Shown piece after piece: positions 1,840-15,558 of a stretch of DNA of 32,000 bases. The first letter of the stretch is position 1, and each line of letters opens with the position of its first letter. Below the pieces are notes generated by a model that was not told the origin of the DNA, did no database searches, and was given only the letters and a program-made list of their open reading frames with translations. Origin of the DNA: Kineococcus radiotolerans SRS30216 = ATCC BAA-149 (lineage in GTDB: Bacteria; Actinomycetota; Actinomycetes; Actinomycetales; Kineococcaceae); NCBI RefSeq assembly GCF_000017305.1, contig NC_009664.2, forward strand, positions 1,200,001 to 1,232,000, given 5' to 3'. The position numbers were made by a program, and so were the translations under genes.

Positions 1840-3042
1840 TCAGGAACGTGCCTCGATGAGCTCATCGAGTTGGTGGTCGAAAGAGGCGGCGACAGCCTCC
1901 CATGTGAAGTTGTCCACGAGCCGCGCCCTCCCGTGGTCCGCGAGGCGCTCGCGCAGCCCGCGGTCCTCCGCCATGCGCCGCAAGGTCTGGGCCAGTTCGA
2001 TGGGTGAGTTGGGCCTAGCCAGCAGCGCTGTCTCGCCGTCCGCGACCACCGACGGGATCGCCCCGATGTCGGCACTGACGACCGCCATGCCGGATGCCCA
2101 CGCCTCGAGGAAAACGGTGGGGAAAGCATCATTCGCGGTCGTCGGGTAAGTGATCATAACTTCTGCTTCACGCAGCAGGTCGAACTTCCGAGCTCCTTCA
2201 GCATGACCGACGAAGGTGACGAATCGCTCGAGGCCCAGCGCCTCCGCCTCCCGCTCGTACCGGGTACGACTGTCACCGTCACCGATGACCACAAGATCCA
2301 CGTCCAAAACGCCGTACAGCTGCCGGTAGCTGTCCAGTGCCTGCAGCACGAGACTCAGCCCTTTCCAGCCATGGGTGGCGTCCAGTCGAGCCAGGAACGC
2401 CGCGGTGAACCTCTGCTCCCGGAGTCGATGAGCGACGGGAGCCACGAGACGTCCATTGAGCGCGTTGGGGAGCACATCCACGGTGCGCCCTGAACGTTCC
2501 TGCAGTCGGTCGGCCACGAAGGGGGATACCGCCAAGACCTGATCCGCTCGACGCAGGAGACCTCGCTCGACCAATCCGTAAATGGAGATCAGCACGTTTA
2601 GCAGGCGTGCGTCGTCCTTGAGCAGAGAGGCTGCGTGGTAAGTGACGACGAGCGGCACTGGGCTCTGAGCAGCCACCAGGTCGGCCAATCCCGGAACGGG
2701 TGTGTGAACGTTGATGACGTCGAACTTCTCCCGCGCGAGGAACTGACGGACCCAGAACGGCCAAAGAGGGTGCAGTGGCGTGTACGACACCTTGAACAGC
2801 ACCGGCAACCTGAGAACGGAGACGCCTTCCACTGCATCCTGCGCGGGGCGCTTGAGCCCAAGGGAACCCGTGGTCAAGACCGTCACCCGGCATCCCCTGG
2901 CGCTCATGGCCTTGGCGAGCCCCAGTACATAGCTTTCCACACCGCCGACAGCCGGCGGGAAGTACGCGGAGACGATGAGGAGTCTCTTTCCATTCCCGGA
3001 GCGGCGGGCCGATTCAGTCTGACCTTGGGGCACGAAGGCCAT
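1840..3042 (-). CDS. Glycosyltransferase family 4 (GT-B fold), last gene of the island operon
   Basis: 400 aa. N-terminal KRLLIVSAYFPPAVGGVESYV. C-terminal EX7E-type motif FPTVFLEAWASGMAVVS. Lower GC than the flanks. A 7-bp hairpin (1821-1843) overlaps the stop codon. Confidence 0.85.
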   Translation of the reverse strand: MAFVPQGQTESARRSGNGKRLLIVSAYFPPAVGGVESYVLGLAKAMSARGCRVTVLTTGSLGLKRPAQDAVEGVSVLRLPVLFKVSYTPLHPLWPFWVRQFLAREKFDVINVHTPVPGLADLVAAQSPVPLVVTYHAASLLKDDARLLNVLISIYGLVERGLLRRADQVLAVSPFVADRLQERSGRTVDVLPNALNGRLVAPVAHRLREQRFTAAFLARLDATHGWKGLSLVLQALDSYRQLYGVLDVDLVVIGDGDSRTRYEREAEALGLERFVTFVGHAEGARKFDLLREAEVMITYPTTANDAFPTVFLEAWASGMAVVSADIGAIPSVVADGETALLARPNSPIELAQTLRRMAEDRGLRERLADHGRARLVDNFTWEAVAASFDHQLDELIEARS

Positions 3043-3072: not shown

Positions 3073-4269
3073 TTACCCGACGTTCGCTTGACGAAAAGCC
3101 GCGTACGCTGGTTTAGGCGAACCATCGACCCGACGAAGGCCGAAGAAGTTCTCGATGGTCGAAGAGTTCTGACCCAGGTCTTTCCATGAGTACCAGTACA
3201 AGCCTCCGATCCTCGGGTCCGCCTTGATGGTGCGGATGACATCCTCGGCCATCTTCGCCTGGAGCTGTTCGGTCACGTGGGTCGTCGTGCTCGGAATTGC
3301 CCCGGGCAATCCTCCGGATGCGGTGCCCGGGCCGCCGGTCGGCGCACCGAACTCCGTGATCCAGATCTGCACACCCCGAACTCCGAAACGGTCCAGAACA
3401 GCCTTCAACTCCCCGATCTGACTCCAGGGCGTCTTCCACGTCGCCTGCAGGCTCGGCAGGAAGGGAAAAGTGTAGGGGTGGAAAGCAACGCCGTCAAAGG
3501 TCTTGCCGGTCTGAGCCACTACCTGGGCCAGGAAGTCGGCAGCTCCCAACCTGCCCTGCCCGGCTGGTGCCGCCGTGAGCCCACCCATCAGGACCCGCGC
3601 GCTCGGGTCCACGGCGCGAATGGCCGTCCTTGCATCCCGCAGGAGCTTCGCGTACGCCCGAGGGTTGACGGCAGGTGCCCAGAAGGCCGGGGCGTTCTGT
3701 TCGTTCCACACTTCCCACTGGTGAACACCCAGGGGGCCGTACCGGGCGCTCGCCGCTCGAGCGAACTTCGCGAAAGCAGCGGTATCCGCCGGCGCGCACT
3801 TGTCGCCGCTCGTGCAGCCGGCGGGGCGCGCCCAGGTGGGGGTGTACGCCAGGATGGGCAGCACGGTCAGCTTTCTACTCCGGGCGGCGGCGACGACTCG
3901 GTCGAAACGACTCCAGTCGAATGCATCCGGGCCGGCTGTCTGCACCTCGGACCAGCTGAGGTCGGCGCGCACGGACGTCACACCAAGAGCCGCGGCGTCA
4001 TCGAACGCAGCCGTCAGCTGCTCCGCGGGCATCCAGGACAAGGTCCCCCCGAACGCCATCCCCACGGTCGGCGAGGTGGTCACCGGTGCTGCAGCGGTCG
4101 ACGCACTTCCCGCCAGAGTCCTGTAGGTGCGCGGCCCACGGGTGTCCTCGACACTCGCTGCAGCCGTCGTCGCCGACTGGCCCGACAACAGCAGCGCCAT
4201 CGCGAAGAGGACGCAACCGCGAACGATCCGCCCGGCTGCCGACCCCCGAAGCGCATTACCTGAGCCCAT
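3073..4269 (-). CDS. Secreted clan GH-A glycoside hydrolase (GH5/GH39-like)
   Basis: 398 aa. Signal peptide (VLFAMALLLSGQSATTAAAS). Acid/base motif WEVWNEQN and nucleophile motif IWITEFG, typical of (beta/alpha)8 clan GH-A enzymes. ATG start with GCAGAGG upstream. Confidence 0.8.
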   Translation of the reverse strand: MGSGNALRGSAAGRIVRGCVLFAMALLLSGQSATTAAASVEDTRGPRTYRTLAGSASTAAAPVTTSPTVGMAFGGTLSWMPAEQLTAAFDDAAALGVTSVRADLSWSEVQTAGPDAFDWSRFDRVVAAARSRKLTVLPILAYTPTWARPAGCTSGDKCAPADTAAFAKFARAASARYGPLGVHQWEVWNEQNAPAFWAPAVNPRAYAKLLRDARTAIRAVDPSARVLMGGLTAAPAGQGRLGAADFLAQVVAQTGKTFDGVAFHPYTFPFLPSLQATWKTPWSQIGELKAVLDRFGVRGVQIWITEFGAPTGGPGTASGGLPGAIPSTTTHVTEQLQAKMAEDVIRTIKADPRIGGLYWYSWKDLGQNSSTIENFFGLRRVDGSPKPAYAAFRQANVG

Positions 4270-4314: not shown

Positions 4315-5517
4315 TCAGTCATGACGCGCGGCGTGAGGTGCTGGTGGGCGAACCACGTCTGCGAAGACTCCCACGAGGCCGCGAGCCTCCTCGTCGATGG
4401 AGAAGCGCTGCGCGGAACGGTGAGCCGCGATCCCCAGACGCTCAGCGAGAGAAGCATCAGCGAGCACCCGCAACAGGGCCTCCGAAAGGTCCTCGACATC
4501 ACCGGGCTCGACGATTAGTCCGTTGACCTCGTGCTCCAACCAGTCGAACACCCCTCCGACGCCCGATGCCACCACGGGACGTCCAACGCTCAGCGCTTCG
4601 ACCCCTGCCTTGCCGAAGGTCTCGGGCCACACGGACGGCATCGCCACCACCCTGCTGCGGGCATACAGGTCCGCCACACCGTCCAGGTCCAGTTGACCCA
4701 GGAAGCGGACGTGTTCGCCGAGCCCGAGATCTTCGACCATCCGCACCAGGTCCTCCTGGTAGGAGCCGGTCCCCGCGATCTCGAGGTGAACTTCCGGAAA
4801 GGACCTGCGCACGTGGGCGAGGGCGCGGATAAGGTAGTGGACTCCCTTCACCTTCTCGAGGCGCCCGGCGTAAGCGATCGTGGTCGACTCGGGGGTCAGC
4901 GGCCGAAATCCGTTGAGACGGATTCCGTTGTTCACGCGCCCGACCGGGCTGCGCCCCTCTTCCTGGAGCACTCCCTGCGTGTAAGTGCTGAAGGCGACAA
5001 AAGCGGAAACCCCGCGCAGAGCCAGCTCGAGCAGGGGCTTGCAGACAGCGCGCAGGTAGACGTAATGCACCCACCCGAGGGCGGAAAGACTGCTCAACGC
5101 GTAGGAGTCGCCGCGGAAGTCCGTCCGGGGTAGGCACCACGGCAGGAGTCTCTTTACGTAAATCTCCGGCCCATGGACGCACACCACCCTGGGGACGCCG
5201 CGTGCAGCGACGAGAGCGGCCGCCGTCGGCTCCCCCAGCACGTGGAAAGACACGACATCGGGCGCGAACTCCCGCACGCTGGCCCGCACGGTTGTGAAGG
5301 CGGAGTGGTTCCACGCGTGCTGGATCAAACGCCTCCACCCCCCCGTCGTCGGTTGCCGGAAGGTGCGGTCACTGAAGTGGTCAGGGCTCCATCGGCGGTC
5401 ACTGGCCACGAGCATCACCTCGTGACCCTCTTCGACCAGGAGTTTCTTTATCTCCTGCAGGCCCGTCTCGACGCCACCTTCAGGCCAGCCAGCGCTGGTC
5501 ACGAACATGATCCTCAC
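4315..5517 (-). CDS. Glycosyltransferase family 4
   Basis: 400 aa. MRIMFVTSAGWPEGGVETGL start region. EX7E-type motif WPETFGKAGVEALSVGRPVVAS. The GTG at 5517 overlaps the upstream stop as GTGA; an alternative ATG lies at 5508. Confidence 0.85.
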   Translation of the reverse strand: MRIMFVTSAGWPEGGVETGLQEIKKLLVEEGHEVMLVASDRRWSPDHFSDRTFRQPTTGGWRRLIQHAWNHSAFTTVRASVREFAPDVVSFHVLGEPTAAALVAARGVPRVVCVHGPEIYVKRLLPWCLPRTDFRGDSYALSSLSALGWVHYVYLRAVCKPLLELALRGVSAFVAFSTYTQGVLQEEGRSPVGRVNNGIRLNGFRPLTPESTTIAYAGRLEKVKGVHYLIRALAHVRRSFPEVHLEIAGTGSYQEDLVRMVEDLGLGEHVRFLGQLDLDGVADLYARSRVVAMPSVWPETFGKAGVEALSVGRPVVASGVGGVFDWLEHEVNGLIVEPGDVEDLSEALLRVLADASLAERLGIAAHRSAQRFSIDEEARGLVGVFADVVRPPAPHAARHD

Positions 5518-6422
5518 TGGATCAACTCCCCTTCCTGCTGTTCCTGGCGAGACACCGCGAACGCTCCTGCGCGCGGCACCTGCCGCACTGCCCCCGACGC
5601 GGGGCGGGCAGAGCGCCGCACCAAACGGACCCTCATCGCTCGGAAGCCGACCATGCGTTGAAAATCACGCAACCCGTTGGGCAGGTAGCTGGGGGGAGTG
5701 CCGTCGAACACGAACGAGACTCCCTCCTTCCTCAGCTCCTCCACCATCGCGGCCGAGAGCATGTACCGAGCGTTGCTGAACGTGTTGCCGTGCCCGAGCG
5801 TTCGGAAGTACCGCAAGTAGGCGGCGCCGTTGGCGATCGGCAGGACAGCCAGCAGCAAGGGCTCACCCGACGGCCCGAAGCCGCCGAGCCAAAACCGGTG
5901 GCCCAGGATGCCGGCGTTCTGCGGACGGCTGTTCCGGTAGTTCGGGTCCGAGTGCTCCATCTCCACACGGTCGGCGAGCGCCAGCAGTTCCCGCCGCTCG
6001 ACCGGGTCCTCGATGCGTCGGTAGGTGACACCGTCCCTCTGCGCCGCTCGGATCTTCCGCCGCAAGGTCTGCTTGCGCGCCCCGCTCAGGTAGTCGGATT
6101 GCGTTCCCGGGACCGCCAAAACAGACATCCCTATCCAGGAGGACCGCAGAACTCGGAAGAGAGGGACCTTGAGCGCCTCCTCGATGACCTTGGACTCCAC
6201 GCCCCCGCCAGCGCGCCAACGCAGTAAAGGCAGCCTCGCGACGGCCACAGCGGCGCAGAGGACTCTCACCGGGTGCCTCGTGGAGTAGCGAAAGGCATTG
6301 TGACCTGAGGCTCTGCGCTGGTGGTAGAAGGTGGACAACGCAGCCTCGGTCGTTGCGGACTCGACCTCGCGGAGGAGTCGTCCCCCCCACTCCCCCACGG
6401 CGCGGACGCGGATCGTCCTCAC
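5514..6422 (-). CDS. GNAT-fold acyltransferase, FemAB/CelD(BcsL)-like (Acetyltransf_6-type), putative glycan-modifying enzyme
   Basis: The track ORF 5514..6659 is over-extended. The GTG at 6422 overlaps the flippase stop (GTGA) and is preceded by GGAGGAGG, giving 303 aa. The segments YLSGARKQTLRRKIRAAQRDGVTYRRIED and AAYLRYFRTLGHGNTFSNARYMLSAAMVEELRKEGVSFVFDG look like the PF13480-type family. Assignment is by eye. Confidence 0.6.
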   Translation of the reverse strand: MRTIRVRAVGEWGGRLLREVESATTEAALSTFYHQRRASGHNAFRYSTRHPVRVLCAAVAVARLPLLRWRAGGGVESKVIEEALKVPLFRVLRSSWIGMSVLAVPGTQSDYLSGARKQTLRRKIRAAQRDGVTYRRIEDPVERRELLALADRVEMEHSDPNYRNSRPQNAGILGHRFWLGGFGPSGEPLLLAVLPIANGAAYLRYFRTLGHGNTFSNARYMLSAAMVEELRKEGVSFVFDGTPPSYLPNGLRDFQRMVGFRAMRVRLVRRSARPASGAVRQVPRAGAFAVSRQEQQEGELIQ

Positions 6423-7690
6423 GCAGCCTCCTCCAATGACGAAAATCCATGCTGACGTCGCCGGCGCATGTGACGAGCGATGAAAGCAGCGCCCAGTGCC
6501 CCCGACACGAGGTACCCCGAACTCCAGGCCAGGCCGGTGTACGTCAGATCGGCATCCTTGAATGCCAACGTCAGACCGACGGTGACGAGGCAGTACACCA
6601 GGTTGACAAGCATCATCGGACGCAGCAGGTTGAAGATGAGCAGGACGTTGGTGGCCCAACTCTGGAGAGCCACACCGATTGCTCCCACAGCCAGAACCTG
6701 CAGCAAGTTTCTGGCACCTTCGCTGTACTCGGAACCGAACAGGCTAAGGATCAATCCGCTCAGCAGGACGGTGACGAGACCCGCTGGCACCTGACTGAGC
6801 AGCATCAGCCAGGCTGCTCGCCTCACGAGCGCAGGGATGGGTGCCCCCTCCTGCGAGGCTTCTGCGAGGACTGCTTCCCCCACCGCGCGGGCCAGAGCGT
6901 ATAGGAGCGTTGCGATCTGCAGCGCGACGGCGAAGTAGGCGGCCTCGGCCGCACCGTGATGGTGGACGACGATAACCGGGATCGCCATGGTGGGCAGCAG
7001 GGCGAACAGTCGGGCCGCGTAGTTGGACAGGGAGTACCGCCACTGATCCGCGACCGCGGTCCGTGCGTGCCCCATCTTCACCTTGAGTCCGAGCCTCGTC
7101 CGGATCAGGTACAAGGACAGGATCAGCGCAGCCGCGAAGCCGAGCCCTGTCGACATCACGATCCCCATGGTTCCCAGAGCGACGAGGAGCGGTGCCGCAG
7201 AGATCTTCACGAGTCCTGACAAGATCCCGTTGGCGACCACGTTGAACTGCGCTCGACGCAAGGACACGAAGACGAAATCGGTGAGGAGGTTCGCACTGGC
7301 GACCACCGCGCTGAGCAGGAACAAGGCAATGAGGAAGGGGTCACTCGTCAGGACGCTGAGCTCGCTCGAGAAGGTCAAGGCGACGATCAGGTAGACCCCG
7401 CCGGTGACGAGGCCTGCGAACGACACCACAGCGAGAGCCTGACCCACGAGTACGCCTCGTTGCGACGAGGCCGCGAGGAAGCGAAGCGTCGTACCGTCCA
7501 TCCCGAGGAGTGCGACGTAGCAGAGCACTGACAGGGCTGCGGTGAGAGTGGTCGCGATCCCGACGTCGCTGGCCGAGTAGGCTCGGGCGACGATGACCCA
7601 GAAGACGAATCCCGTGCCAGCTGTGGCTGCCGCTGTCGCTACCGAGAAGACGGCTGTACGGAGGAGGTGGTCGAACGATCTCAGTGACAC
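6419..7690 (-). CDS. Wzx-type polysaccharide/oligosaccharide flippase (MOP superfamily)
   Basis: 423 aa, hydrophobic throughout with about 12 predicted helices. Length and N-terminal pattern (LLRTAVFSVATAAATAGTGFVFWVIVARAYSASDVGIATTL) are typical of Polysacc_synt/Wzx proteins. GTG start at 7690. Confidence 0.8.
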   Translation of the reverse strand: MSLRSFDHLLRTAVFSVATAAATAGTGFVFWVIVARAYSASDVGIATTLTAALSVLCYVALLGMDGTTLRFLAASSQRGVLVGQALAVVSFAGLVTGGVYLIVALTFSSELSVLTSDPFLIALFLLSAVVASANLLTDFVFVSLRRAQFNVVANGILSGLVKISAAPLLVALGTMGIVMSTGLGFAAALILSLYLIRTRLGLKVKMGHARTAVADQWRYSLSNYAARLFALLPTMAIPVIVVHHHGAAEAAYFAVALQIATLLYALARAVGEAVLAEASQEGAPIPALVRRAAWLMLLSQVPAGLVTVLLSGLILSLFGSEYSEGARNLLQVLAVGAIGVALQSWATNVLLIFNLLRPMMLVNLVYCLVTVGLTLAFKDADLTYTGLAWSSGYLVSGALGAAFIARHMRRRRQHGFSSLEEAA

Positions 7691-7802
7691 GCTGGTGACG
7701 TCCCTTGGAGTTGCGAGGCGATCCCGGACGACCGGGGACCAACCATTGCTGTTGGGCAGGACGCGCCGGCGTCAGGCCCGTCGGTCGGCTTCGGGGCTCA
7801 CC

Positions 7803-10154
7803 TCACCCGTATACCTCAGCGCCCCCGTTCGCGTATAGGAGATCCTTTTCTCGATCGAGGAGCCCGAGCGGGTAACGGTAAGTGATCAAACTCCCCTTGA
7901 AGTTGATCGTCGAGATGCCCTTCTCCATCGTGGGAGTTCCGAGGAACACCAACGCGTCCGTCCGCACTAGAGGGGGGAAGATGTCTGTCGCCTTAGGCAG
8001 GGGTAGGACCGATCGCACACGGTTGATCGTGTATCGATCCGAGGAGATGTCCACCTGGACGTTGTCACGAGCAGACTTCTCCGCCTCTCGACGGAGCCAC
8101 TCGGTACCTGCGATCTCCCGGGCGTTGACGTAGTAGATGTTGTAGTACAGCCCCGAGTTGTTGAGGTAGAGCTGCGGGGAGAAACCACCGAGGACCTGCG
8201 ACGATGCGCCGGAGAGAGCCGGCAGGAGCCCGATCAGTAAGGCCGCAGGAAGCACTGCACCCGCCCGTCTGCCCAAGAGGCTGCAGAGCTGAGTCACGCC
8301 AAGAGCCATCACGGGTGCCAGCACGAGCAGGGCTTGCTGCAGGGCTCTGAAGACTCCGTACTCCACGGAGAGGGCGGGCAGGACGGCGATCACCGCAACC
8401 GTCGCTGCTCCCCCAACAGCGAGCCCGTACACCGCTCCTTGGTCGTTCCCGCCGGAGGAGCGTCGCCGCCAAGCCATGACGAGACCCAGCAGGATCAGGA
8501 CCTGGAAGCCCGCGGCAGCCGACCGTTTCACGGTGTAGCTCACCGTGTAGAGGTCGACTCCCCGGTCCTGGATCAGCCTGCCCACCGGGCTCACGGGCAC
8601 CACTTCCTCCGGCGCCTTGGTCACCGGGTAGGCCGAGAGGACGTCCAGCGGGAGGTACTGCCCTTGCGCTCGCTCGGCGGCAGTACCGCTCAGCGACTCC
8701 TCCTCGTACTCGGCGAGTAGCTCATCGTTGCTCGGCCTAGCCGCTGACCACAGCGCGTACGAAGTGTCGGCGGAACGATCCGCCGGGGACCCGGTCAGCT
8801 GTGCGACCGTCGCACTCAAGGATTCACGGACCTGCCCACCGGTGTGCGTGACGGGGCCGGCCCATAAGTAGGCCGCTGCCGCGAGCACTGCGACCTCGAG
8901 TAGTCCGAATCCGAACCTCCCGCCCAGCGCGTTCTGGACCCGGGAGTCGTTCCGCCGGCCCACGGGCAGCCTCAGGCCGACCATTCGCACACAGAGAGCG
9001 CCCAGCATGATCAGGATGAGGACGTAGGTCGTCGAGTAGTGGGAGAGGACGCTGGCGATCGAGAGGCACGTGATGGTCGCGCGACGAAGCCAGAGCGGCC
9101 AGTCCACCTGAACAGCGACAGCCACCAATAACCCGACGAAGAAGAGCGCAACCTCCTGGCGGACCAGGAAAGGCATGTCGTTGTAGTACGTGGGAAAGAT
9201 CATGAAAAAGGTCGCACCCAGTACGGACATCTTCCGCCCCAGGAACCTTCGACCGATGAGGTAGACCACGATCGGGCACAGGGCGAACAGCAATTGAGCC
9301 AAGACTTTGAAGATGTACAAGCCGGGGAGGCCAGTGATGTTCTCGATGACCGTCGGGAGAATTGTGATGCTCAGGCAGGCGTTGTAGGCGTTGCGGAAGC
9401 TCGTGACGTTCCAGGCTCCAGCCGCGTTGGTGTAGGTGAACATCTGGTACTCGAACTGGATGTCGTGGCCTGTGATGAACCAGCCGCGAAGAGAGGTCAT
9501 GAGCAGCAGCGCGACACCTGCGGTGTAGATGCAGGAGATGACCACGATCTCGCGGACTCGAGCGGCAAGGACGACCAGCAGGACGAGCAGGACGAGGACC
9601 AGGGCCAGCATCACCAGCGTGACGTTGCCCGACAGGCCGTTGTTCAGGCGTGTAGGACCGGCGATGGAGAGGACCAGGACGATCGCACTGAGAGCTGCGA
9701 GCCACCGCTCCCCGCCCGACAAGGGGATCCTCCCGCCGCGAGGAAGGCCGGGCGTCGCATCGCGTCGCCAAGCGGTGAGCGCGACCGCCACCACGTTGGC
9801 GACGACGAGAAGCGGGACCTTCGAAAGGGGACGATCGATTCCGGCCAGGGGCAAGACGTAGTTCATGACGAGAGCGGGGATGACGAGCAGCAGGAGAGAC
9901 CCCGCGATGCTCAGGAGCAGCGCGAGCAGACCCCGGTCGGGCCACGGGACCTTCGAGAACAGGAGGAGGGTGGGTAGAGCGATGAGCAGCCAGACACCAC
10001 CGGCAACGTTGAGCGGTGTCCAAGGGGAGACCACGAGCACGTTGCCCACGACGATGGTGATCGCAAGGGCGACCAGAGGACGGAGAGGTGCACGGCCGAC
10101 GACCGCCAGAGCGTGACCGCTGACGGGCGGTTCGTCTTCCGTCTCAGAGCTCAT
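7803..10154 (-). CDS. 783-aa polytopic membrane protein, DUF2206-like; candidate GT-C-like transferase or non-canonical polymerase
   Basis: ATG with a GGAGAT RBS. There is a block of about 13 helices in residues 1-430, containing the acidic motif GHDIQFEYQ. A soluble insert of about 130 aa follows, then 3-4 more helices. The C-terminal extracytoplasmic domain of about 120 aa ends in LLYANGGAEVYG. Resemblance to Pfam DUF2206 (mostly archaeal) is from memory. The gene itself is solid; the family call is tentative. Confidence 0.7.
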   Translation of the reverse strand: MSSETEDEPPVSGHALAVVGRAPLRPLVALAITIVVGNVLVVSPWTPLNVAGGVWLLIALPTLLLFSKVPWPDRGLLALLLSIAGSLLLLVIPALVMNYVLPLAGIDRPLSKVPLLVVANVVAVALTAWRRDATPGLPRGGRIPLSGGERWLAALSAIVLVLSIAGPTRLNNGLSGNVTLVMLALVLVLLVLLVVLAARVREIVVISCIYTAGVALLLMTSLRGWFITGHDIQFEYQMFTYTNAAGAWNVTSFRNAYNACLSITILPTVIENITGLPGLYIFKVLAQLLFALCPIVVYLIGRRFLGRKMSVLGATFFMIFPTYYNDMPFLVRQEVALFFVGLLVAVAVQVDWPLWLRRATITCLSIASVLSHYSTTYVLILIMLGALCVRMVGLRLPVGRRNDSRVQNALGGRFGFGLLEVAVLAAAAYLWAGPVTHTGGQVRESLSATVAQLTGSPADRSADTSYALWSAARPSNDELLAEYEEESLSGTAAERAQGQYLPLDVLSAYPVTKAPEEVVPVSPVGRLIQDRGVDLYTVSYTVKRSAAAGFQVLILLGLVMAWRRRSSGGNDQGAVYGLAVGGAATVAVIAVLPALSVEYGVFRALQQALLVLAPVMALGVTQLCSLLGRRAGAVLPAALLIGLLPALSGASSQVLGGFSPQLYLNNSGLYYNIYYVNAREIAGTEWLRREAEKSARDNVQVDISSDRYTINRVRSVLPLPKATDIFPPLVRTDALVFLGTPTMEKGISTINFKGSLITYRYPLGLLDREKDLLYANGGAEVYG

Positions 10155-10220
10155 GACGCTTGATCTCCATCTTCTTCACCGAACTGGGCAGTGTCGCGCG
10201 GCGAGTCCGCCGCCCAGCGC

Positions 10221-10694
10221 TCAAGAGGACTCTCGACTTTCCACCGAGGCGTGGATGAGCAGCGACTGCTCGGGCAACGTCACCACGACCTTCAAAGGAC
10301 CTGATGGTTGAGCCCCCGTCTTGAGGGTCGCCTGCACCACTTCAGACTGACCCGGTTCGAGTACACCGGTCCGCCCTCGGAGAGCATCCACAGTGGTGGT
10401 GCCGTCGATGAGATCGGCGCTGTAGAAGAATGTCTTGGGTTCCTCGTAGTGGCTTGATACGACGATCTCGACGAGAGTTTCGCCACGCGCCTCCTCGAGC
10501 CGAGGGGCAGATCCGAAGGAGAGCTCGACGAAGTCTCGCGGGCGTTCCGTGAAGGAAAGACTGAGTTGCCGCGATATCGGGGATCTCCAAACGGTTCCCG
10601 CCACGATCAGCACTACAAGGATCAGGAGGGCAGCAGGCAACTTGCGTCGCGACAGGAGTGCCCCCGGCAGGACGCTCCTAACTTTCGAGAGCAT
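10221..10694 (-). CDS. Single-pass membrane protein with beta-rich extracytoplasmic domain (function unknown)
   Basis: 157 aa. N-terminal anchor RRKLPAALLILVVLIVAGTVW, then alternating beta-strand-like segments (LVEIVVSSHY, TFFYSADLI, LKVVVTLPEQ). Same strand and composition as its neighbours. No recognisable catalytic motif. Confidence 0.6.
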   Translation of the reverse strand: MLSKVRSVLPGALLSRRKLPAALLILVVLIVAGTVWRSPISRQLSLSFTERPRDFVELSFGSAPRLEEARGETLVEIVVSSHYEEPKTFFYSADLIDGTTTVDALRGRTGVLEPGQSEVVQATLKTGAQPSGPLKVVVTLPEQSLLIHASVESRESS

Positions 10695-10776
10695 GCTTGA
10701 AACCTACTCGCCGAGGTTCCCCTCGGTCCAACTCGAGTCGGCGAGGATTGGTTCTCTCGTGTTGGTCAACGAGGAC

Positions 10777-11556
10777 TCAGTCCAGGGCCAACGCCTTGCT
10801 CGCGGTCGTGACGTTCTCAAGGCTGACTGCGGGCTCAGGCAGGACGATCACAGAGGCATTCGCCGAGACGCGACGGGCGCGGACCCGGTGCGCCAGCAAC
10901 TGCCAACCATTCTGGAGTCCGTCCTTGGTCGCATTGAGCTTCACCTGACCGCCACGAGTGCGGTACTCGATCGAGACCTCTCCGCAACAAAAGCCCTTGA
11001 GGAACGCCTCGTTTTTGATCTCCTGCGAGAACTGCATCCCGTTCGAACGGACGTCTAGGTGCTCCCAGATCGCCCGGCGGAAGATCCACATCCCCGACTG
11101 ACTGTCCCGGAAGGGGGACCGCGGGAAGAGAGTCTTGCTCGCAGCAGTCAGGAGGTGGTTGCCGACGATGTGGGAGGTCTTCATCGCGGAATGGTTCGCA
11201 CGACCCAGTCGATTCGTCGACATGAAATCGAACCCCTGAAGCTCGAGCTCCAGGATCAACGTGGGGAGCGCATCGAAGGGGTAGGTGCAGTCCGCGTCGC
11301 CCGTAGCGATGACATCCCCGGTCGCTGCGGCGAAACCTGCGTGGTAGGCGTTTCCGTAGCCTCGATTCGGCTGGTGGACCACGATGGCCCCCAGTTCGGC
11401 CGCAATTCTCGCCGTTCCGTCCGTCGAGGCGTTGTCCACTACGATCACTTCCAGGTCCCACCCCTGCTGCCGCAGCGCCTCGGCAGGAATCTGACCGAGA
11501 ACCCGCGGCATGTTGGGCTCTTCATTCAGCGCAGGAATGACTACGGACAATTTCAT
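10777..11556 (-). CDS. Glycosyltransferase family 2, soluble Dpm1/ALG5/GtrB-catalytic-domain-like (putative polyprenyl-phosphate sugar synthase); first gene of the operon
   Basis: The ATG at 11556 is preceded by GGGGGAG (track ORF starts at 11577). Motifs seen: MKLSVVIPALNEE, VVDNASTDGT, the DxD-type motif TGDADCTYP, and QSGMWIFRR. About 259 aa with no TM segment. Confidence 0.85.
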   Translation of the reverse strand: MKLSVVIPALNEEPNMPRVLGQIPAEALRQQGWDLEVIVVDNASTDGTARIAAELGAIVVHQPNRGYGNAYHAGFAAATGDVIATGDADCTYPFDALPTLILELELQGFDFMSTNRLGRANHSAMKTSHIVGNHLLTAASKTLFPRSPFRDSQSGMWIFRRAIWEHLDVRSNGMQFSQEIKNEAFLKGFCCGEVSIEYRTRGGQVKLNATKDGLQNGWQLLAHRVRARRVSANASVIVLPEPAVSLENVTTASKALALD

Positions 11557-11807
11557 GACTCCCCCAATTTCACGCAAAAGCGCGCAAGACCGCGATCGAC
11601 TACTGCTAAATCTTCACAGCCACGTCACGAGCCCAGCAACCAGAACGCCAAAATGTGAGGGGGGTCACAGTCAAAACCTGCCCCTAGACCTTGATTTTGC
11701 GTCTCCCGGAACCTGATGGAGCATTCTTGTGACGCGAGGTGTCAGCCCGACTACATACTGTTAATAGTTTCAACTGAACACTCGTTCCCTCAGCGCCCCT
11801 GTCCTAA
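11557..11807 (-). promoter_or_regulatory. AT-richer upstream region of the glycan operon (promoter/5' leader expected here)
   Basis: This is the least GC-rich stretch in the window (e.g. ttaatagtttcaactgaaca, aaatcttcaca). It lies directly upstream of the first operon gene and is bounded by the IS right end at 11808. I could not pick a convincing -35/-10 pair by eye. Confidence 0.3.
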
Positions 11808-11846
11808 CCGAGCTCTTTCCAGGAGCGGCGTGAGGGTCGCATCCCG

Positions 11847-12475
11847 TCACGTCGTGCGGCCGTGCTGGAGGTGCAGCACGACGAGCACCGCAGCGGTGAC
11901 GACCCCAATCCATCACGGACAGGGCGTCACCTTGTGCCGAGCCCGGTAGTTCTTCAACCAAGCATTGCCCTGCTCCGCGGGCGCGGATGTGGGCGGGGAC
12001 GAGGTTGAACCGGCGTTCGTCCTCGGACAGCTCCCGGTCCTCGACCGTCTTGTGCGGGCAGGTGAGGTGGTGGTGTTCATCTTCGCAGCTCAGCTCAGCG
12101 AGGACCTCGCGGCCGGCGGCGGTGAACTCCTCCGGAGCGGGCAGCAGGTCGACCGGATCCTTGCGCAGGTGGTGTCGTGCTCACGGCCGGAGCGCACCGC
12201 TGAGACGTAAATCGACCATTCAACGGAGGCGGTGAGGACTTGGACGTCGCCGCCGTGGCGGTGACGAGGGCGCCGTTGCCGCGGGCCAGGTCAGCGATGC
12301 GGGTCGCGTCCAGCAGGTAACGGCAGATCAGGACCGCGTGGGCGAAGACCCCCGGGGCCCGGCGTCCGGTGCGGGTGCCCAGGTGGAGGCGCTGGCGTTG
12401 CAGGAGTGCGGCGATGTGCTGGACAGTGGTCCGGGAGGTGAGCAGGACGGCGGTATAGGTGGCAAGATCAGGCAC
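11847..12475 (-). pseudogene. DDE_Tnp_4-type transposase pseudogene (frameshifted, internally deleted, in-frame TGA)
   Basis: Pieces sit in three different minus-strand frames. N-terminal HTH-like piece: TRTGRRAPGVFAHAVLICRYLLDATRIADLARGNG. Core piece: DVQVLTASVEWSIYVSAVRSGREHD. C-terminal piece: LSEDERRFNLVPAHIRARGEQGNAWLKNYRARHKVTPCP-stop-WIGVVTAAVLVVLHLQH, with the TGA at 11913-11915. Total length is about 630 nt against about 800-900 nt expected. The region holding the first catalytic Asp is missing. Confidence 0.7.
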
Positions 12476-12654: not shown

Positions 12655-13830
12655 TTGAAGGTCGTTCTCATCAGCACGTACTTCCCTCCGCACCTCGGAG
12701 GAGTCGAAGTCGTGGCAGCCGATCTCGCTTCGGCCCTTGTCCGCGCCGGTCACGACGTGACCGTCGTGACCACCGGACGCTCCGCCGAGACGGGAGCGCA
12801 CGAAGTGATGGACGGCTACCGCATCGTCCGGCTCTCCGCTTGGAACGGCATCGAGGAACGCACGGGCATACCGTTCCCCCTCTTGAGTCCATCGGCCCTC
12901 GAGGTGCTTCACCAGCTGATCTGTTCCGCCGACGTCGTGCACGTCCACGACTTCCTTTACCCCCCGTGCCACGCAGGGATCGCTCTCACTGCGCTGACGG
13001 GCCGACCGCTGGTCCTGAGCCTGCACGTCGCCCGGGTTCCCCACACCAACCCCCTGACTCAACTGGCACAAGGTCTCATCGCCGCCAGCATGGGGAGGTT
13101 TGCGGTCAAACGTGCTGCTCGAGTGATCGTGCACAACGAGAACGTCGCCGCTTTCGCCGAAAAGCTGGGAGCCCCTCCCCGCCGGATCAAGCTCGTCCGG
13201 ACAGGCGTGTCCGTGTCGGAGTTCACCCCCTCCACTCATAAGGAGAAACGCGCCGCCCTCGTGCGCTTCGGGCTACCGCTGGATCGCCCGGTGGTCCTCT
13301 TCGTCGGGCGACTGGTTCCGAAGAAGGGGTACCTGCAAGTGATCGAGGCAACGAGCCCCGACATCCACCTGGCGCTGGCAGGCAGTGGGTCACTGGATGG
13401 CGTGGTTGATCACGTGACGTGGCTGGGACCGGTCGCGCGGGGCAAACTCGTGGAGTTGTACCGGGCAGCGAGCGTCCTGGTGGCTCCTTACGATCGTGAA
13501 CCGTTCACTCTCGTGCTCCAGGAAGCCATGGCCAGCGGCATCCCCGTCATCACTACCGAAGAAGCGGAGTACCACGCTGCCGGCTTGGGCTTCCCTGCCG
13601 TCAAATTCGCTCGACGAACCAGCTCTGCCCTTCGGTCGGCCATCGACGAGGTCATGGGGGACGCTTCCTTGGCGGTCACCATGGCCCGAGCGGCTCGCCG
13701 CTACGCCGAAGAAAACTTCGACAAGAGGTTGCACGTACAGGCCGTGCTGGAAGCCTACGTCACGGCGGTCCGTCCGCGACGGCATCACGCGCGTGAAGGC
13801 GACGCTGAGGCTGGGCTTCGGCACCATTGA
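12655..13830 (+). CDS. Glycosyltransferase family 4 (divergent from the main operon)
   Basis: 391 aa with a TTG start at 12655. MKVVLISTYFPPHLGGVEVVAADLA start region. EX7E-type motif REPFTLVLQEAMASGIPVITT. Bracketed by the two 126-bp repeats. Confidence 0.85.
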   Translation: MKVVLISTYFPPHLGGVEVVAADLASALVRAGHDVTVVTTGRSAETGAHEVMDGYRIVRLSAWNGIEERTGIPFPLLSPSALEVLHQLICSADVVHVHDFLYPPCHAGIALTALTGRPLVLSLHVARVPHTNPLTQLAQGLIAASMGRFAVKRAARVIVHNENVAAFAEKLGAPPRRIKLVRTGVSVSEFTPSTHKEKRAALVRFGLPLDRPVVLFVGRLVPKKGYLQVIEATSPDIHLALAGSGSLDGVVDHVTWLGPVARGKLVELYRAASVLVAPYDREPFTLVLQEAMASGIPVITTEEAEYHAAGLGFPAVKFARRTSSALRSAIDEVMGDASLAVTMARAARRYAEENFDKRLHVQAVLEAYVTAVRPRRHHAREGDAEAGLRHH

Positions 13831-14305: not shown

Positions 14306-14902
14306 TCAAGCCGGGGCGTGGAACTTCTGCTGCGCCGCTTCGAACCCCTTGATGACGAGCTCCTCCACCGCGTCGGCGGCGTCCATCACCAGGAACGGCA
14401 TGTCCTTCTTCTCCGTGCTGGAGAACTCCTTGAGCACGAAGTCGGCCGGGTCCTGCCGGCCGGGCGGGCGGCCGATGCCGACGCGCACCCGGGCGTAGTC
14501 CTTGTCGCCCAACGACTTGGAGATGGATCGGAGGCCGTTGTGGCCGCCTTCGCCGCCGCCGCGCTTGAGGCGCACGGAGCCGAAGGGGACGTCGAGCTCG
14601 TCGTGGACGACGACGAGGTGCTCGACGTCGACGTCGAAGTACTTCGCCAGTCCGGCCACGGGGCCGCCGGAGACGTTCATGTAGGACGTGGGCGCCGCGA
14701 GGACGACCCGCGGCCCCGGCGCCCCGCCGGGCGCGACGCCGAGGCGGACCTCGGCGGTGCGCGCGCCCGTGCGGTGGCGCTTGAAGGACCCCCGCGTGCG
14801 CGACGCCAGCTCGTCGAGCACCATCTGGCCGACGTTGTGCCGGGTGCGCTCGTACTCGGCGCCGGGGTTGCCCAAGCCGACGACGAGCCAGGCGTCGCTC
14901 AC
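14306..14902 (-). CDS. pth: Peptidyl-tRNA hydrolase
   Basis: 198 aa. WLVVGLGNPGAEYERTRHNVG motif. Conserved position downstream of rplY. Confidence 0.95.
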   Translation of the reverse strand: MSDAWLVVGLGNPGAEYERTRHNVGQMVLDELASRTRGSFKRHRTGARTAEVRLGVAPGGAPGPRVVLAAPTSYMNVSGGPVAGLAKYFDVDVEHLVVVHDELDVPFGSVRLKRGGGEGGHNGLRSISKSLGDKDYARVRVGIGRPPGRQDPADFVLKEFSSTEKKDMPFLVMDAADAVEELVIKGFEAAQQKFHAPA

Positions 14903-14928
14903 GGGATCAGTGCCTCAGCGGTCGAGGC

Positions 14929-15558
14929 TCAGGCGTTCTCGCCCTCGACCGGGGTGTGCTCCTCGCGCACGATGCCGGCGTCGGCCTCGAGGGCCTCCAG
15001 CTCGGCCTCGGCCTGGGCGGCGGTCGCGGCGGCGGTGATGACGACGACGAGCTGCTCGGGGTCACCGGCGAGGGTGGTGCCCTCGGGGAGGGTCACGTCG
15101 GAGGCCGCGACGTGCGTGCCGGCGGTCAGGCCCTCGACGGAGACGGTGACGGCGGTGGGGATGGCGGCGGCGTCGGCCTCGACGGAGAGGGTGTTCAGCT
15201 CCTGCTGGACGACGGTCTCGGGGGCGGCGTCGCCCTCGACGTGCAGCGGCACGTCGACGGTGACCTTCTCGCCGCGGCGCACGACGAGCAGGTCGACGTG
15301 CTCGATGAAACCCTTGATCGGGTCGCGCTGGACGTCCTTCGGCAGCACCAGGTGCGAGGTGCCGTCCACGTCGATGTCGAGCAGCACGTTGGAGTTGCGC
15401 AGCGCGATCATGGTCTCGTGGCCCGGCAGCGTCACGTGCACCGGCGCCTCGCCGTGGCCGTAGACGACCGCGGGGATCTTGCTGGCGCGGCGGATGGTGC
15501 GGGCGGCGCCCTTGCCGAAGCTGGTGCGGACCTCGGCGGTGAGCTTGGTCTCGGCCAT
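14929..15558 (-). CDS. rplY: 50S ribosomal protein L25 / general stress protein Ctc
   Basis: The ATG at 15558 has a GAGGAG RBS (track ORF is over-extended to 15666). MAETKLTAEVRTSFGKGAARTIRRASKIPAVVYGHG. Acidic Ala/Glu-rich C-terminal tail. Confidence 0.95.
   Translation of the reverse strand: MAETKLTAEVRTSFGKGAARTIRRASKIPAVVYGHGEAPVHVTLPGHETMIALRNSNVLLDIDVDGTSHLVLPKDVQRDPIKGFIEHVDLLVVRRGEKVTVDVPLHVEGDAAPETVVQQELNTLSVEADAAAIPTAVTVSVEGLTAGTHVAASDVTLPEGTTLAGDPEQLVVVITAAATAAQAEAELEALEADAGIVREEHTPVEGENA

Follow-up and report, generated by a model that had tools for sequence, protein, structure and literature searches.

The 32-kb window of the Kineococcus radiotolerans genome analysed in this study (all positions are window coordinates) contains three neighbouring genes on the minus strand, at the positions given by an earlier note on this DNA, which encode a family 2 glycosyltransferase (GT2; 10777..11556, 259 amino acids (aa)), a small membrane protein (10221..10694, 157 aa) and a large polytopic protein of the DUF2206 family (7803..10154, 783 aa). 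The 783-aa protein is, by its structural model, an enzyme of the GT-C fold whose putative active site faces outward, and the GT2 is probably a polyprenyl-phosphate hexose synthase. With middling confidence, the trio can be regarded as the core of a self-standing envelope-glycan cluster (about 1.8-13.8 kb) run on polyprenyl-phosphate-linked sugars, in which the GT2 would charge the lipid carrier and the DUF2206 protein would transfer the sugar outside. This reading is supported by the DPMS/ArnC-like character of the GT2, the GT-C fold of the DUF2206 protein, the predicted position of its active site outside, and the linkage of the genes across classes and phyla. The fold, topology, conservation and linkage are established, and it is the chemistry that we infer.

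The three genes are real and are not chance open reading frames (ORFs) of a high-GC genome, as demonstrated by their Pfam matches, hundreds of homologues, synteny in 80 loci and confident structural models (pLDDT 83 and 82). All three ORFs and the sequence motifs quoted for them in the earlier note are present as described, and a separate gene call, on a public assembly of K. radiotolerans, yields identical product lengths of 259, 157 and 783 aa. The 783-aa sequence is 100% identical to a K. radiotolerans entry annotated as hypothetical. None of the four outcomes that would have refuted the earlier note was observed, and its interpretation is supported, with corrections that concern where DUF2206 occurs, how the genes are ordered and what the small protein is related to.

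Family, fold and topology of the DUF2206 protein

The 783-aa protein matches DUF2206 (PF09971) over residues 551-782 with a score of 27.6 bits (E 1.7e-6), the gathering score being 35.6. The family was matched by all 25 of the 25 aligned homologues (34-41% identical), with a best E of 5.4e-24, and a precomputed PF09971 match is recorded for all 120 database relatives among the matches listed. Membership is therefore secure by transitive homology, although the score of the window protein itself lies under the curated cut-off. In a Pfam search of the 25 homologues at E<=1, DUF2206 was the only family common to all of them; the GT-C family PMT_2 (PF13231) was found in seven, DUF6541 in two and EpsG in one (E 0.092). 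The best E for PMT_2 was 2.1e-5, and its gathering score of 26.1 was exceeded in two fused homologues, P0170 (26.7) and P0198 (26.3), while the window protein had no PMT_2 match in the Pfam search.

An AF2 (AlphaFold2) model, computed with the 25-sequence alignment as input, reached a pLDDT of 83 and a pTM of 0.87. When this model was compared to the PDB using Foldseek, ranks 1-19 were all occupied by GT-C enzymes, namely AftA, the STT3 subunits of oligosaccharyltransferase (OST) complexes, PglB, ArnT, AglB and DPY19, with probabilities of 0.77-1.0, followed by unrelated folds with probabilities below 0.25. The best match was AftA (8if8, E 3.5e-5), an enzyme whose donor is a polyprenyl-phosphate monosaccharide. 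Neither the sequence nor its profile gave a meaningful match to PDB chains, and comparing the DUF2206 alignment, as a profile, to an actinobacterial Pmt returned nothing (probability 0.1), so the assignment to GT-C rests on the fold and on the PMT_2 matches of hidden Markov models (HMMs).

The architecture proposed in the earlier note, two transmembrane (TM) blocks and two non-membrane domains, is reproduced by the model, the former at residues 24-435 and 535-648 and the latter at 436-534 and 649-783. About 17 TM helices are predicted, with the N-terminus inside. Residues invariant in the 25-sequence alignment comprise S221-L-R-G-W225, G229-H-D231, E235, Y257, C260, D326, R332-Q333 and H372-Y373. 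They include four positions (G229, H230, D231 and E235) of the acidic motif GHDIQFEYQ at residues 229-237, whose conservation had been suspected from the window sequence. The motif belongs to the putative catalytic loop 222-277, which follows the TM helix 202-221 and is predicted to be outside by helix parity and positive-inside count. With the AF2 helices, the N-terminus and the K/R-rich loops 129-146 and 394-417 are predicted inside, and the GHD loop 222-277, the RLNN loop 169-172, D326, H372 and the domains 436-534 and 649-783 are predicted outside. In this topology every invariant polar residue is located outside or at the outer membrane boundary, and D231 and E235 may be the catalytic residues.

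No match to Wzy_C/WaaL/O-antigen polymerase families (PF04932, PF14296) was obtained at E<=1 for the window protein and the 25 homologues, and neither Wzy nor WaaL occurs among the 50 best PDB fold matches of the 783-aa model. Likewise, STT3 (PF02516) matched neither the 783-aa protein nor the 25 homologues; the 783-aa sequence contains no WWD or WW, and hence no WWDxG motif. A match to TIGR04154 covered 40 residues with 14.7 bits, compared to a cut-off of 450. By signature, the protein is thus neither of the Wzy/WaaL type nor an oligosaccharyltransferase of the STT3 type. The earlier note had set in advance a test of whether this protein is an ordinary Wzy, polymerase or ligase; DUF2206 proved to be the only Pfam family shared by all homologues, with no Wzy/WaaL fold match, and both the DUF2206 membership and the GT-C fold for which the note asked were found.

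Several homologues are natural fusions carrying one to three family 4 glycosyltransferase (GT4) modules on the N-terminus of DUF2206 (P0170, P0172, P0174, P0176 and P0198; 1150-1783 aa). These fusions place the N-terminus of DUF2206 in the cytoplasm, independently of the topology prediction, and suggest that cytoplasmic GT4 steps are physically tied to the GT-C step. In P0240 and P0253, residues 1-205, consisting of a TM helix, about 150 soluble residues and a second TM helix, are fused ahead of DUF2206. The architecture of this extension is similar to that of a Wzz-like co-polymerase, a candidate assignment that found no Pfam match at E<=10 and is kept as a lead only. The extension of P0193 is soluble throughout (255 aa) and shows a faint match of PAS type.

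The GT2 and the small protein

The GT2 contains the motifs VVIPALNEE, DNASTDGT and GDADCTYP and matches Glycos_transf_2 (PF00535) with 94.5 bits. Its ATG start codon is preceded, 5 nt upstream, by a ribosome-binding site, GGGGGAG; an alternative TTG start at 11577 would yield a protein of 266 aa. The top NCBIfam matches of the GT2 are the haloarchaeal dolichyl-phosphate (Dol-P) hexose transferase, AglJ, ArnC and PpgS, all of which are polyprenyl-phosphate sugar synthases, and a search of PDB sequences gave ArnC and Pyrococcus DPMS as the top matches. A profile built from eleven cluster-linked GT2s aligned with Pyrococcus DPMS (5mlz) over positions 1-221 (E 6e-28) and with ArnC over positions 1-208, whereas chondroitin synthase, GpgS and other GT2s aligned only over about positions 1-107, the N-terminal nucleotide-binding half. 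The acceptor half, which would accommodate the lipid phosphate, is therefore specifically DPMS/ArnC-like. This agreement over the whole catalytic domain favours the Dpm1-like lipid-phosphate synthase proposed in the earlier note over a processive or glycan-directed transferase. The DXD motif (D87-A-D89) is invariant in the comparison of cluster-linked GT2s.

A hydrophobicity scan found no segment above the TM threshold in the window GT2, as the note had claimed, or in any of its 49 close orthologues. Distant GT2s, found at the equivalent position in eight related loci, have two to four C-terminal TM helices each, which is the DPMS/GtrB architecture. Members of the synthase class that lack TM segments are known, such as human DPM1 and the catalytic domain of mycobacterial Ppm1.

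The AF2 model of the small protein (pLDDT 82) comprises a TM helix at residues 19-35 and a seven-strand beta-sandwich at residues 56-151, resembling immunoglobulin (Ig) and fibronectin type III (Fn3) domains. In Foldseek it matched the Fn3-like accessory domain found in GH3 beta-glucosidases; the fold is a generic one. Basic residues precede the TM helix, as judged from the sequence, and the protein is therefore predicted to be single-pass with its N-terminus inside and the sandwich outside. Pfam search with the window protein gave no match, and DUF1616 (PF07760) was absent even at E<=10, but DUF1616 was matched by two of ten members of the small-protein family, not including the window protein, with a best E of 7.8e-5. 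The description of this protein as membrane-anchored and beta-rich was sound, while the statement that it has no known motif gives way to a remote relation with DUF1616, proteins that have been described as archaeal membrane glycoproteins (PMC8241124).

The small protein is putatively an extracytoplasmic partner, or accessory subunit, of the GT-C enzyme rather than an anchor of the GT2, since it is kept where the GT2 has its own TM helices, and often far from that GT2. The possibility that it anchors the TM-less GT2, in the manner of DPM3 for DPM1, was considered and judged unlikely, its folded domain being outside and the protein being kept, often at a distance, in loci whose GT2 bears TM helices.

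Conservation, gene content and setting of the cluster

The earlier note described DUF2206 as a mainly archaeal family, whose presence in an actinobacterial envelope-glycan operon would be informative. The family is not rare in bacteria: a scan of one genome per species, with the bacterial DUF2206 subfamily as query, found 379 relatives, and every named or placed relative encountered in the analysis is bacterial, mostly from Actinomycetota, in which the family is abundant. When the profile search was made exhaustive, the DUF2206 relatives fell into 4570 clusters (50% identity), and for 2428 of these E was 1e-30 or lower. The best 80 of the 379 relatives were used for locus counts, with gene presence determined by tblastn and, for the small protein, by iterated HMM. 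Their hosts include the actinobacterial genera Streptomyces, Kitasatospora, Streptacidiphilus, Actinoplanes, Pseudonocardia, Amycolatopsis and Mycobacterium, as well as Streptosporangiaceae, Acidimicrobiia, Thermoleophilia, Saccharimonadales/Patescibacteria (Saccharimonadia) and one metagenome-assembled genome (MAG) of Acidobacteriaceae.

The trio does co-occur outside K. radiotolerans, as the reading in the earlier note requires. The GT2 is present in 69 of the 80 loci, in 49 of which it is 49-69% identical to the window GT2, and the small-protein family in 76, on the same strand as DUF2206 in 75; the four loci without it are on short contigs in which little sequence precedes the DUF2206 gene. 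Homologues of the MOP-superfamily flippase were found in 74/80 loci, with Polysacc_synt (PF01943) as its annotation in other genomes, and those of the three GT4s of the window in 74/80 (4315..5517), 77/80 (1840..3042) and 78/80 (12655..13830). A homologue of the family 5-like glycoside hydrolase (GH5) occurs in 53/80. The recurrent set thus consists of the GT2, the small protein, DUF2206, three to five GT4s, the MOP flippase and usually the GH5. Most often the genes are ordered GT2, small protein, GT4, DUF2206, GT4 and flippase. The small gene and the DUF2206 gene are separated by 300-2000 bp in 50 of 75 loci, the intervening gene being a GT4 where called, and the direct adjacency of GT2, small protein and DUF2206 seen in the window is a minority layout. 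The orthologue of the GT4 that is divergently transcribed in the window lies mostly immediately downstream of DUF2206, +0 to +1.5 kb from its stop codon.

When all ORFs from the 80 loci were clustered, no other family was common to at least 20 loci, and those present in 6-19 loci were limited to an additional GT4, an epimerase and an ATP-grasp protein. Phosphoglycosyl transferases, Wzy, Wzz and ligases did not appear among the conserved neighbours in this clustering. Seven contexts annotated with Pfam were also free of phosphoglycosyl transferases, Wzy, Wzz, ligases, ABC transporters and GtrA-type flippases. Variable modifiers in these contexts include a pyruvyl transferase, a CE4 deacetylase, a methyltransferase and Acetyltransf_6. 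The presence of a Wzx flippase without a normal Wzy, Wzz or ligase, observed by the earlier note in the window, is in this way extended by the Pfam search, the ORF clustering and the annotated contexts.

A full copy of the cluster resides on the 772-kb megaplasmid of Kitasatospora sp. NBC_00070 (NZ_CP108248.1; locus L032), where the DUF2206 gene is annotated as a hypothetical protein; this was the only carrier found by tblastn against plasmids. The cluster also occurs in reduced-genome episymbionts of Actinomycetota, as a Saccharimonadales MAG (locus L044) demonstrates. Just upstream of its DUF2206 gene, this MAG has a fusion of a CE4 deacetylase with a GT4 and an adjoining GT4-GT4 fusion (5638-7557 and 7554-9794), the former pointing to cytoplasmic de-N-acetylation of a lipid-linked intermediate.

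In the window, the trio is followed on the same strand by genes for the MOP-superfamily (Wzx/PelG-like) flippase (6419..7690, 423 aa), whose match to PelG (PF16933, 36.7 bits) is limited to the C-terminal part, a 302-aa protein (5514..6422), a GT4 (4315..5517, 400 aa; Glycos_transf_1 with 130.8 bits, and Glyco_transf_4), a GH5-like glycoside hydrolase of clan GH-A (3073..4269; Cellulase PF00150, 45 bits) and a second GT4 (1840..3042, 400 aa; Glyco_transf_4 with 102 bits, Glycos_transf_1 with 91 bits). The third GT4 (12655..13830, 391 aa), recognised by Pfam GT4 domains, is encoded divergently on the plus strand. The GH5-like gene would encode a signal-peptide-like N-terminus if its start is at 4269, judging by eye from the sequence. 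The 302-aa protein, encoded between the flippase and a GT4, is specific to this version of the cluster, with no homologue in the 80 loci; faint matches to Acetyltransf_6 and LPG_synthase_C (E 0.1-0.2) make it a very weakly supported candidate acyl/acetyltransferase, and it may represent a strain-specific acyl modification enzyme.

The earlier note placed the trio at the beginning of an island operon. The common strand and the short intergenic gaps around the trio genes (82, 66 and 112 bp) agree with this, and a terminator scan found no terminator-like site in the gaps between them, but the regional count of such sites equals chance, and transcription of the trio as one operon is therefore plausible, not established. 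The AT-richer non-coding stretch 5' of the GT2 (11557..11830, minus strand), as read from the sequence, is the presumed operon promoter or leader; a simple promoter scan of it found no sigma-70 consensus, with promoter counts at chance level.

The G+C content is 61-67% over about 1.8 to 14 kb, a region that includes the trio, compared to 70-79% in the flanks. At 12013-12258, on the minus strand, the DNA is 68-80% identical to plasmid-borne genes of Pseudonocardia and Streptomyces annotated as 'transposase family protein', its translation split across frames and its match to DDE_Tnp_4 faint (E 0.06). This is probably what remains of a degraded insertion sequence. It lies between the promoter region of the GT2 and the divergently transcribed GT4, and fits a horizontal acquisition of the low-GC island. 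The island is flanked by conserved actinobacterial housekeeping genes, mfd on one side and prs, GlmU-like, KsgA (RrnaAD) and TatD-domain ORFs on the other. In Streptomyces sp. NPDC049915 the cluster (locus L083, 1-10000) directly follows genes with TatD, RpfB-type, KsgA and GHMP-kinase (ispE-like) domains, and these like neighbours in the two organisms suggest that the housekeeping neighbourhood is a recurrent integration region. The flanking plus-strand ORFs are 35-1135, which encodes the C-terminal end of a DUF4012 protein of 572 aa, 1272-1664 (130 aa) and 14318-15463 (381 aa), the last of which had no Pfam match.

Possible routes of glycan assembly

In the proposed scheme, the TM-less GT2 would use a nucleotide sugar to load a hexose onto polyprenyl phosphate at the cytoplasmic face, by homology with Dpm1, ArnC, GtrB and AglJ. 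The lipid-linked sugar would then be flipped by the MOP-family protein of the cluster or by an unlinked flippase. Outside, the DUF2206 GT-C enzyme would pass on this sugar, in a single step or processively, the acceptor being a glycan or glycolipid that may be assembled inside by the three to five GT4s and subsequently exported. On the outer side, the small Ig-like protein could serve as an accessory subunit that binds the acceptor or controls length, and the presumably secreted GH5 may trim the product. Glycosyl transfer on the outer face by a synthase and its polytopic partner, which the earlier note derived from known pairs, is supported by the fold and the predicted topology.

This logic is familiar from three-component glycosylation systems such as GtrA/GtrB/GtrC, CsbB/GtcA/YfhO (PMC7389260) and that of GT136, in which, as is proposed for the window, a cytoplasmic polyprenyl-phosphate synthase is linked to an outward-acting polytopic GT-C. 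The GT136 system, described in Citrobacter, combines a polyprenyl-phosphoribose synthase with a flippase of the MATE family and a GT-C whose C-terminus bears a carbohydrate-binding module (PMC11127046), and is similar to the window in its linked MOP/MATE flippase and in the C-terminal non-membrane domain of its GT-C. The window differs from Gtr-type systems in having no GtrA (PF04138) four-helix flippase and a small partner that is single-pass with an Ig-like ectodomain. It differs from the three-component systems in general in that its GT-C belongs to DUF2206, its GT2 lacks TM helices, and the module never occurs alone but always amid three to five GT4s, in most cases with a GH5 as well. The mycobacterial PIM-LM-LAM and arabinan pathways offer another parallel, with GT4s (PimA/PimB') acting inside and Ppm1 (GT2) serving GT-C enzymes (PimE/MptA/MptB, AftA/Emb) outside; AftA is also the best structural match of the 783-aa protein. 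The latter, however, has no sequence relation to AftA, Emb or Mpt enzymes, and the window genes form one compact, horizontally mobile cluster with a Wzx-type flippase and a GH5.

A number of observations weigh against the proposed scheme. The NCBIfam scores of the GT2 are far under the respective cut-offs (103 of 375 bits for Dol-P-hexose transferase, 102 of 325 for AglJ and 57 of 529 for ArnC) and, since every score is under its curated cut-off, the GT2 is not an orthologue of any named enzyme; it also has no membrane anchor of its own. The TM-scores of the GT-C fold matches are modest (0.26-0.45), and no characterised DUF2206 member was found in the literature. The cluster has one flippase for two lipid-linked species and no small flippase of the GtrA type, and the trio, unlike typical decoration modules, is never found apart from the GT4s and the flippase. 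A further difficulty is stereochemical. Clan GH-A, to which GH5 belongs, is specific for beta-D or alpha-L linkages, whereas retaining GT4s together with an inverting GT-C using a polyprenyl-phosphate-beta-D-sugar would produce alpha-D linkages. The conserved GH5 therefore fits no simple reading of the glycosyltransferases of the cluster, in either of the two leading models.

The second of these models, which we regard as a tentative alternative, is a route of the haloarchaeal style. Here the GT2 would prime polyprenyl monophosphate as AglJ does, the GT4s would extend the primer, the MOP protein would flip the product, and DUF2206, taking the place of both the phosphoglycosyl transferase and the Wzy or ligase, would transfer it en bloc to a protein, cell-wall or glycan acceptor, or polymerise it. 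To our knowledge, GT4 extension of a polyprenyl-monophosphate hexose has no precedent in bacteria, which counts against this route. It is nevertheless the only scheme that needs no components from outside the cluster, consistent with the lack of any phosphoglycosyl transferase, Wzy, Wzz, ligase or ABC transporter in the seven annotated contexts and with the finding that, beyond the core set, only the extra GT4, epimerase and ATP-grasp families reach at least six of the 80 loci. The travelling of the cluster as a unit, seen in the low-GC island, the Kitasatospora plasmid and the reduced-genome Saccharimonadales, points in the same direction, as do the GT4-GT4-DUF2206 fusions, which resemble an assembly line. 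AglJ is among the best family matches of the GT2, and STT3, PglB and AglB are among the fold matches of DUF2206. Against this route, the best fold match, AftA, takes monosaccharide donors, and the 783-aa protein has neither the WWDxG oligosaccharyltransferase motif nor an STT3 Pfam match. An initiating enzyme encoded elsewhere, such as WecA, would also be compatible with the gene content.

In Haloferax volcanii, N-glycans are built on dolichol monophosphate with AglJ acting first (PMC3871713, PMC3892788), and AglD/AglR/AglS provide a precedent for the first of the two schemes (PMC3871713); the transferase of a second such pathway has not yet been identified (PMC8241124). The systems of this archaeon (AglJ, AglG/I/E and AglB; AglD/AglR/AglS; PMC3871713, PMC3892788) share with the window a GT2, for which AglJ and the haloarchaeal Dol-P-hexose transferase are the best family matches in the window, and a GT-C predicted to act outside, and their Wzx-like AglR/Agl15 handles monophosphate-linked sugars, as the flippase of the window may. 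They differ from the window, which has bacterial hosts, soluble transferases of family GT4 in place of GT2, and no AglB/STT3 signature. That DUF2206 represents a new bacterial GT-C class, moving or polymerising oligosaccharides built on polyprenyl monophosphate with initiation by the GT2 and extension by the GT4s, is a rather doubtful proposition.

It is improbable that the cluster is a Wzx/Wzy pathway with a replaced polymerase, in which an unlinked phosphoglycosyl transferase primes undecaprenyl diphosphate, the GT4s assemble the repeat unit on it, the unit is flipped by the MOP protein, and DUF2206 stands in for Wzy as a non-orthologous polymerase, the GT2 product serving only side-chain decoration or another pathway. 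Clusters of the window type do resemble Wzx/Wzy loci in combining a MOP flippase, several cytoplasmic glycosyltransferases and modifiers (pyruvyl transferase, deacetylase, methyltransferase) in one operon; the flippase is of the Wzx type, and DUF2206 is the sole polytopic candidate for a polymerase. An inverting GT-C acting on a diphosphate-alpha-linked donor would, by its stereochemistry, form a beta-linkage that GH5 could cut, and the TM-150 aa-TM segment at the N-terminus of P0240 and P0253 resembles a chain-length regulator, although no HMM supports the latter reading. On the other hand, the loci examined yielded neither a phosphoglycosyl transferase nor Wzy, Wzz/PCP or a ligase, and the 783-aa protein has neither sequence nor fold similarity to Wzy/WaaL. 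This pathway would furthermore provide no transferase to act with the GT2, although the linkage of the latter is tight and very strongly conserved (identities of up to 69% between classes), and would need an unlinked initiating enzyme in every host, Saccharimonadales included.

Finally, the modest TM-scores to solved GT-C structures, the absence of a PDB sequence match and the empty profile comparison with Pmt would agree with a 783-aa protein that is no glycosyltransferase at all but a membrane scaffold, exporter or glycan anchor, GT-C-like by ancestry only, yet this is very unlikely given that R223, H230, D231, E235, D326, R332, Q333 and H372 are invariant at the predicted outer boundary, an active-site pattern, and that PMT_2 reaches its gathering score in two homologues.

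The scheme in which the GT2 charges the lipid and DUF2206 transfers the sugar outside draws its parts from known superfamilies (GT-A, GT-C, MOP, GT-B and GH-A), and its logic resembles that of known systems, the pairing of a GT-C with a Dpm1-like synthase being a familiar theme. What is new is a GT-C family with no characterised member found, its small partner, and a fixed, widespread cluster devoid of the usual initiating and polymerising enzymes. A literature search for DUF2206/PF09971 gave no relevant paper and one for DUF1616 a single passing mention, and a search for GT-C together with Saccharibacteria or Streptomyces found nothing. DUF2206 is a large family and always central to a similar cluster of 8-11 genes; its reaction, once solved, would provide a function for a whole GT-C family. 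The invariant residues and the natural GT4 fusions offer starting points for mutagenesis and for structural studies of an assembly complex that may link cytoplasm and periplasm.

The cluster also offers a test of whether bacteria can use polyprenyl monophosphate as the carrier for glycan synthesis, with neither a phosphoglycosyl transferase nor Wzy taking part. If they do so in the haloarchaeal style, it would be a fifth bacterial route to surface glycans, independent of phosphoglycosyl transferase, Wzy, ABC transporter or synthase, and common to Actinomycetota and their Saccharimonadia episymbionts, with a mechanistic parallel in haloarchaeal N-glycosylation. Solving the reaction would identify a surface glycan of Streptomyces, Actinoplanes, Pseudonocardia, some mycobacteria, Acidimicrobiia and Saccharimonadia, and this glycan could matter for phage adsorption, for contact between episymbiont and host, and for desiccation and radiation tolerance in Kineococcus.

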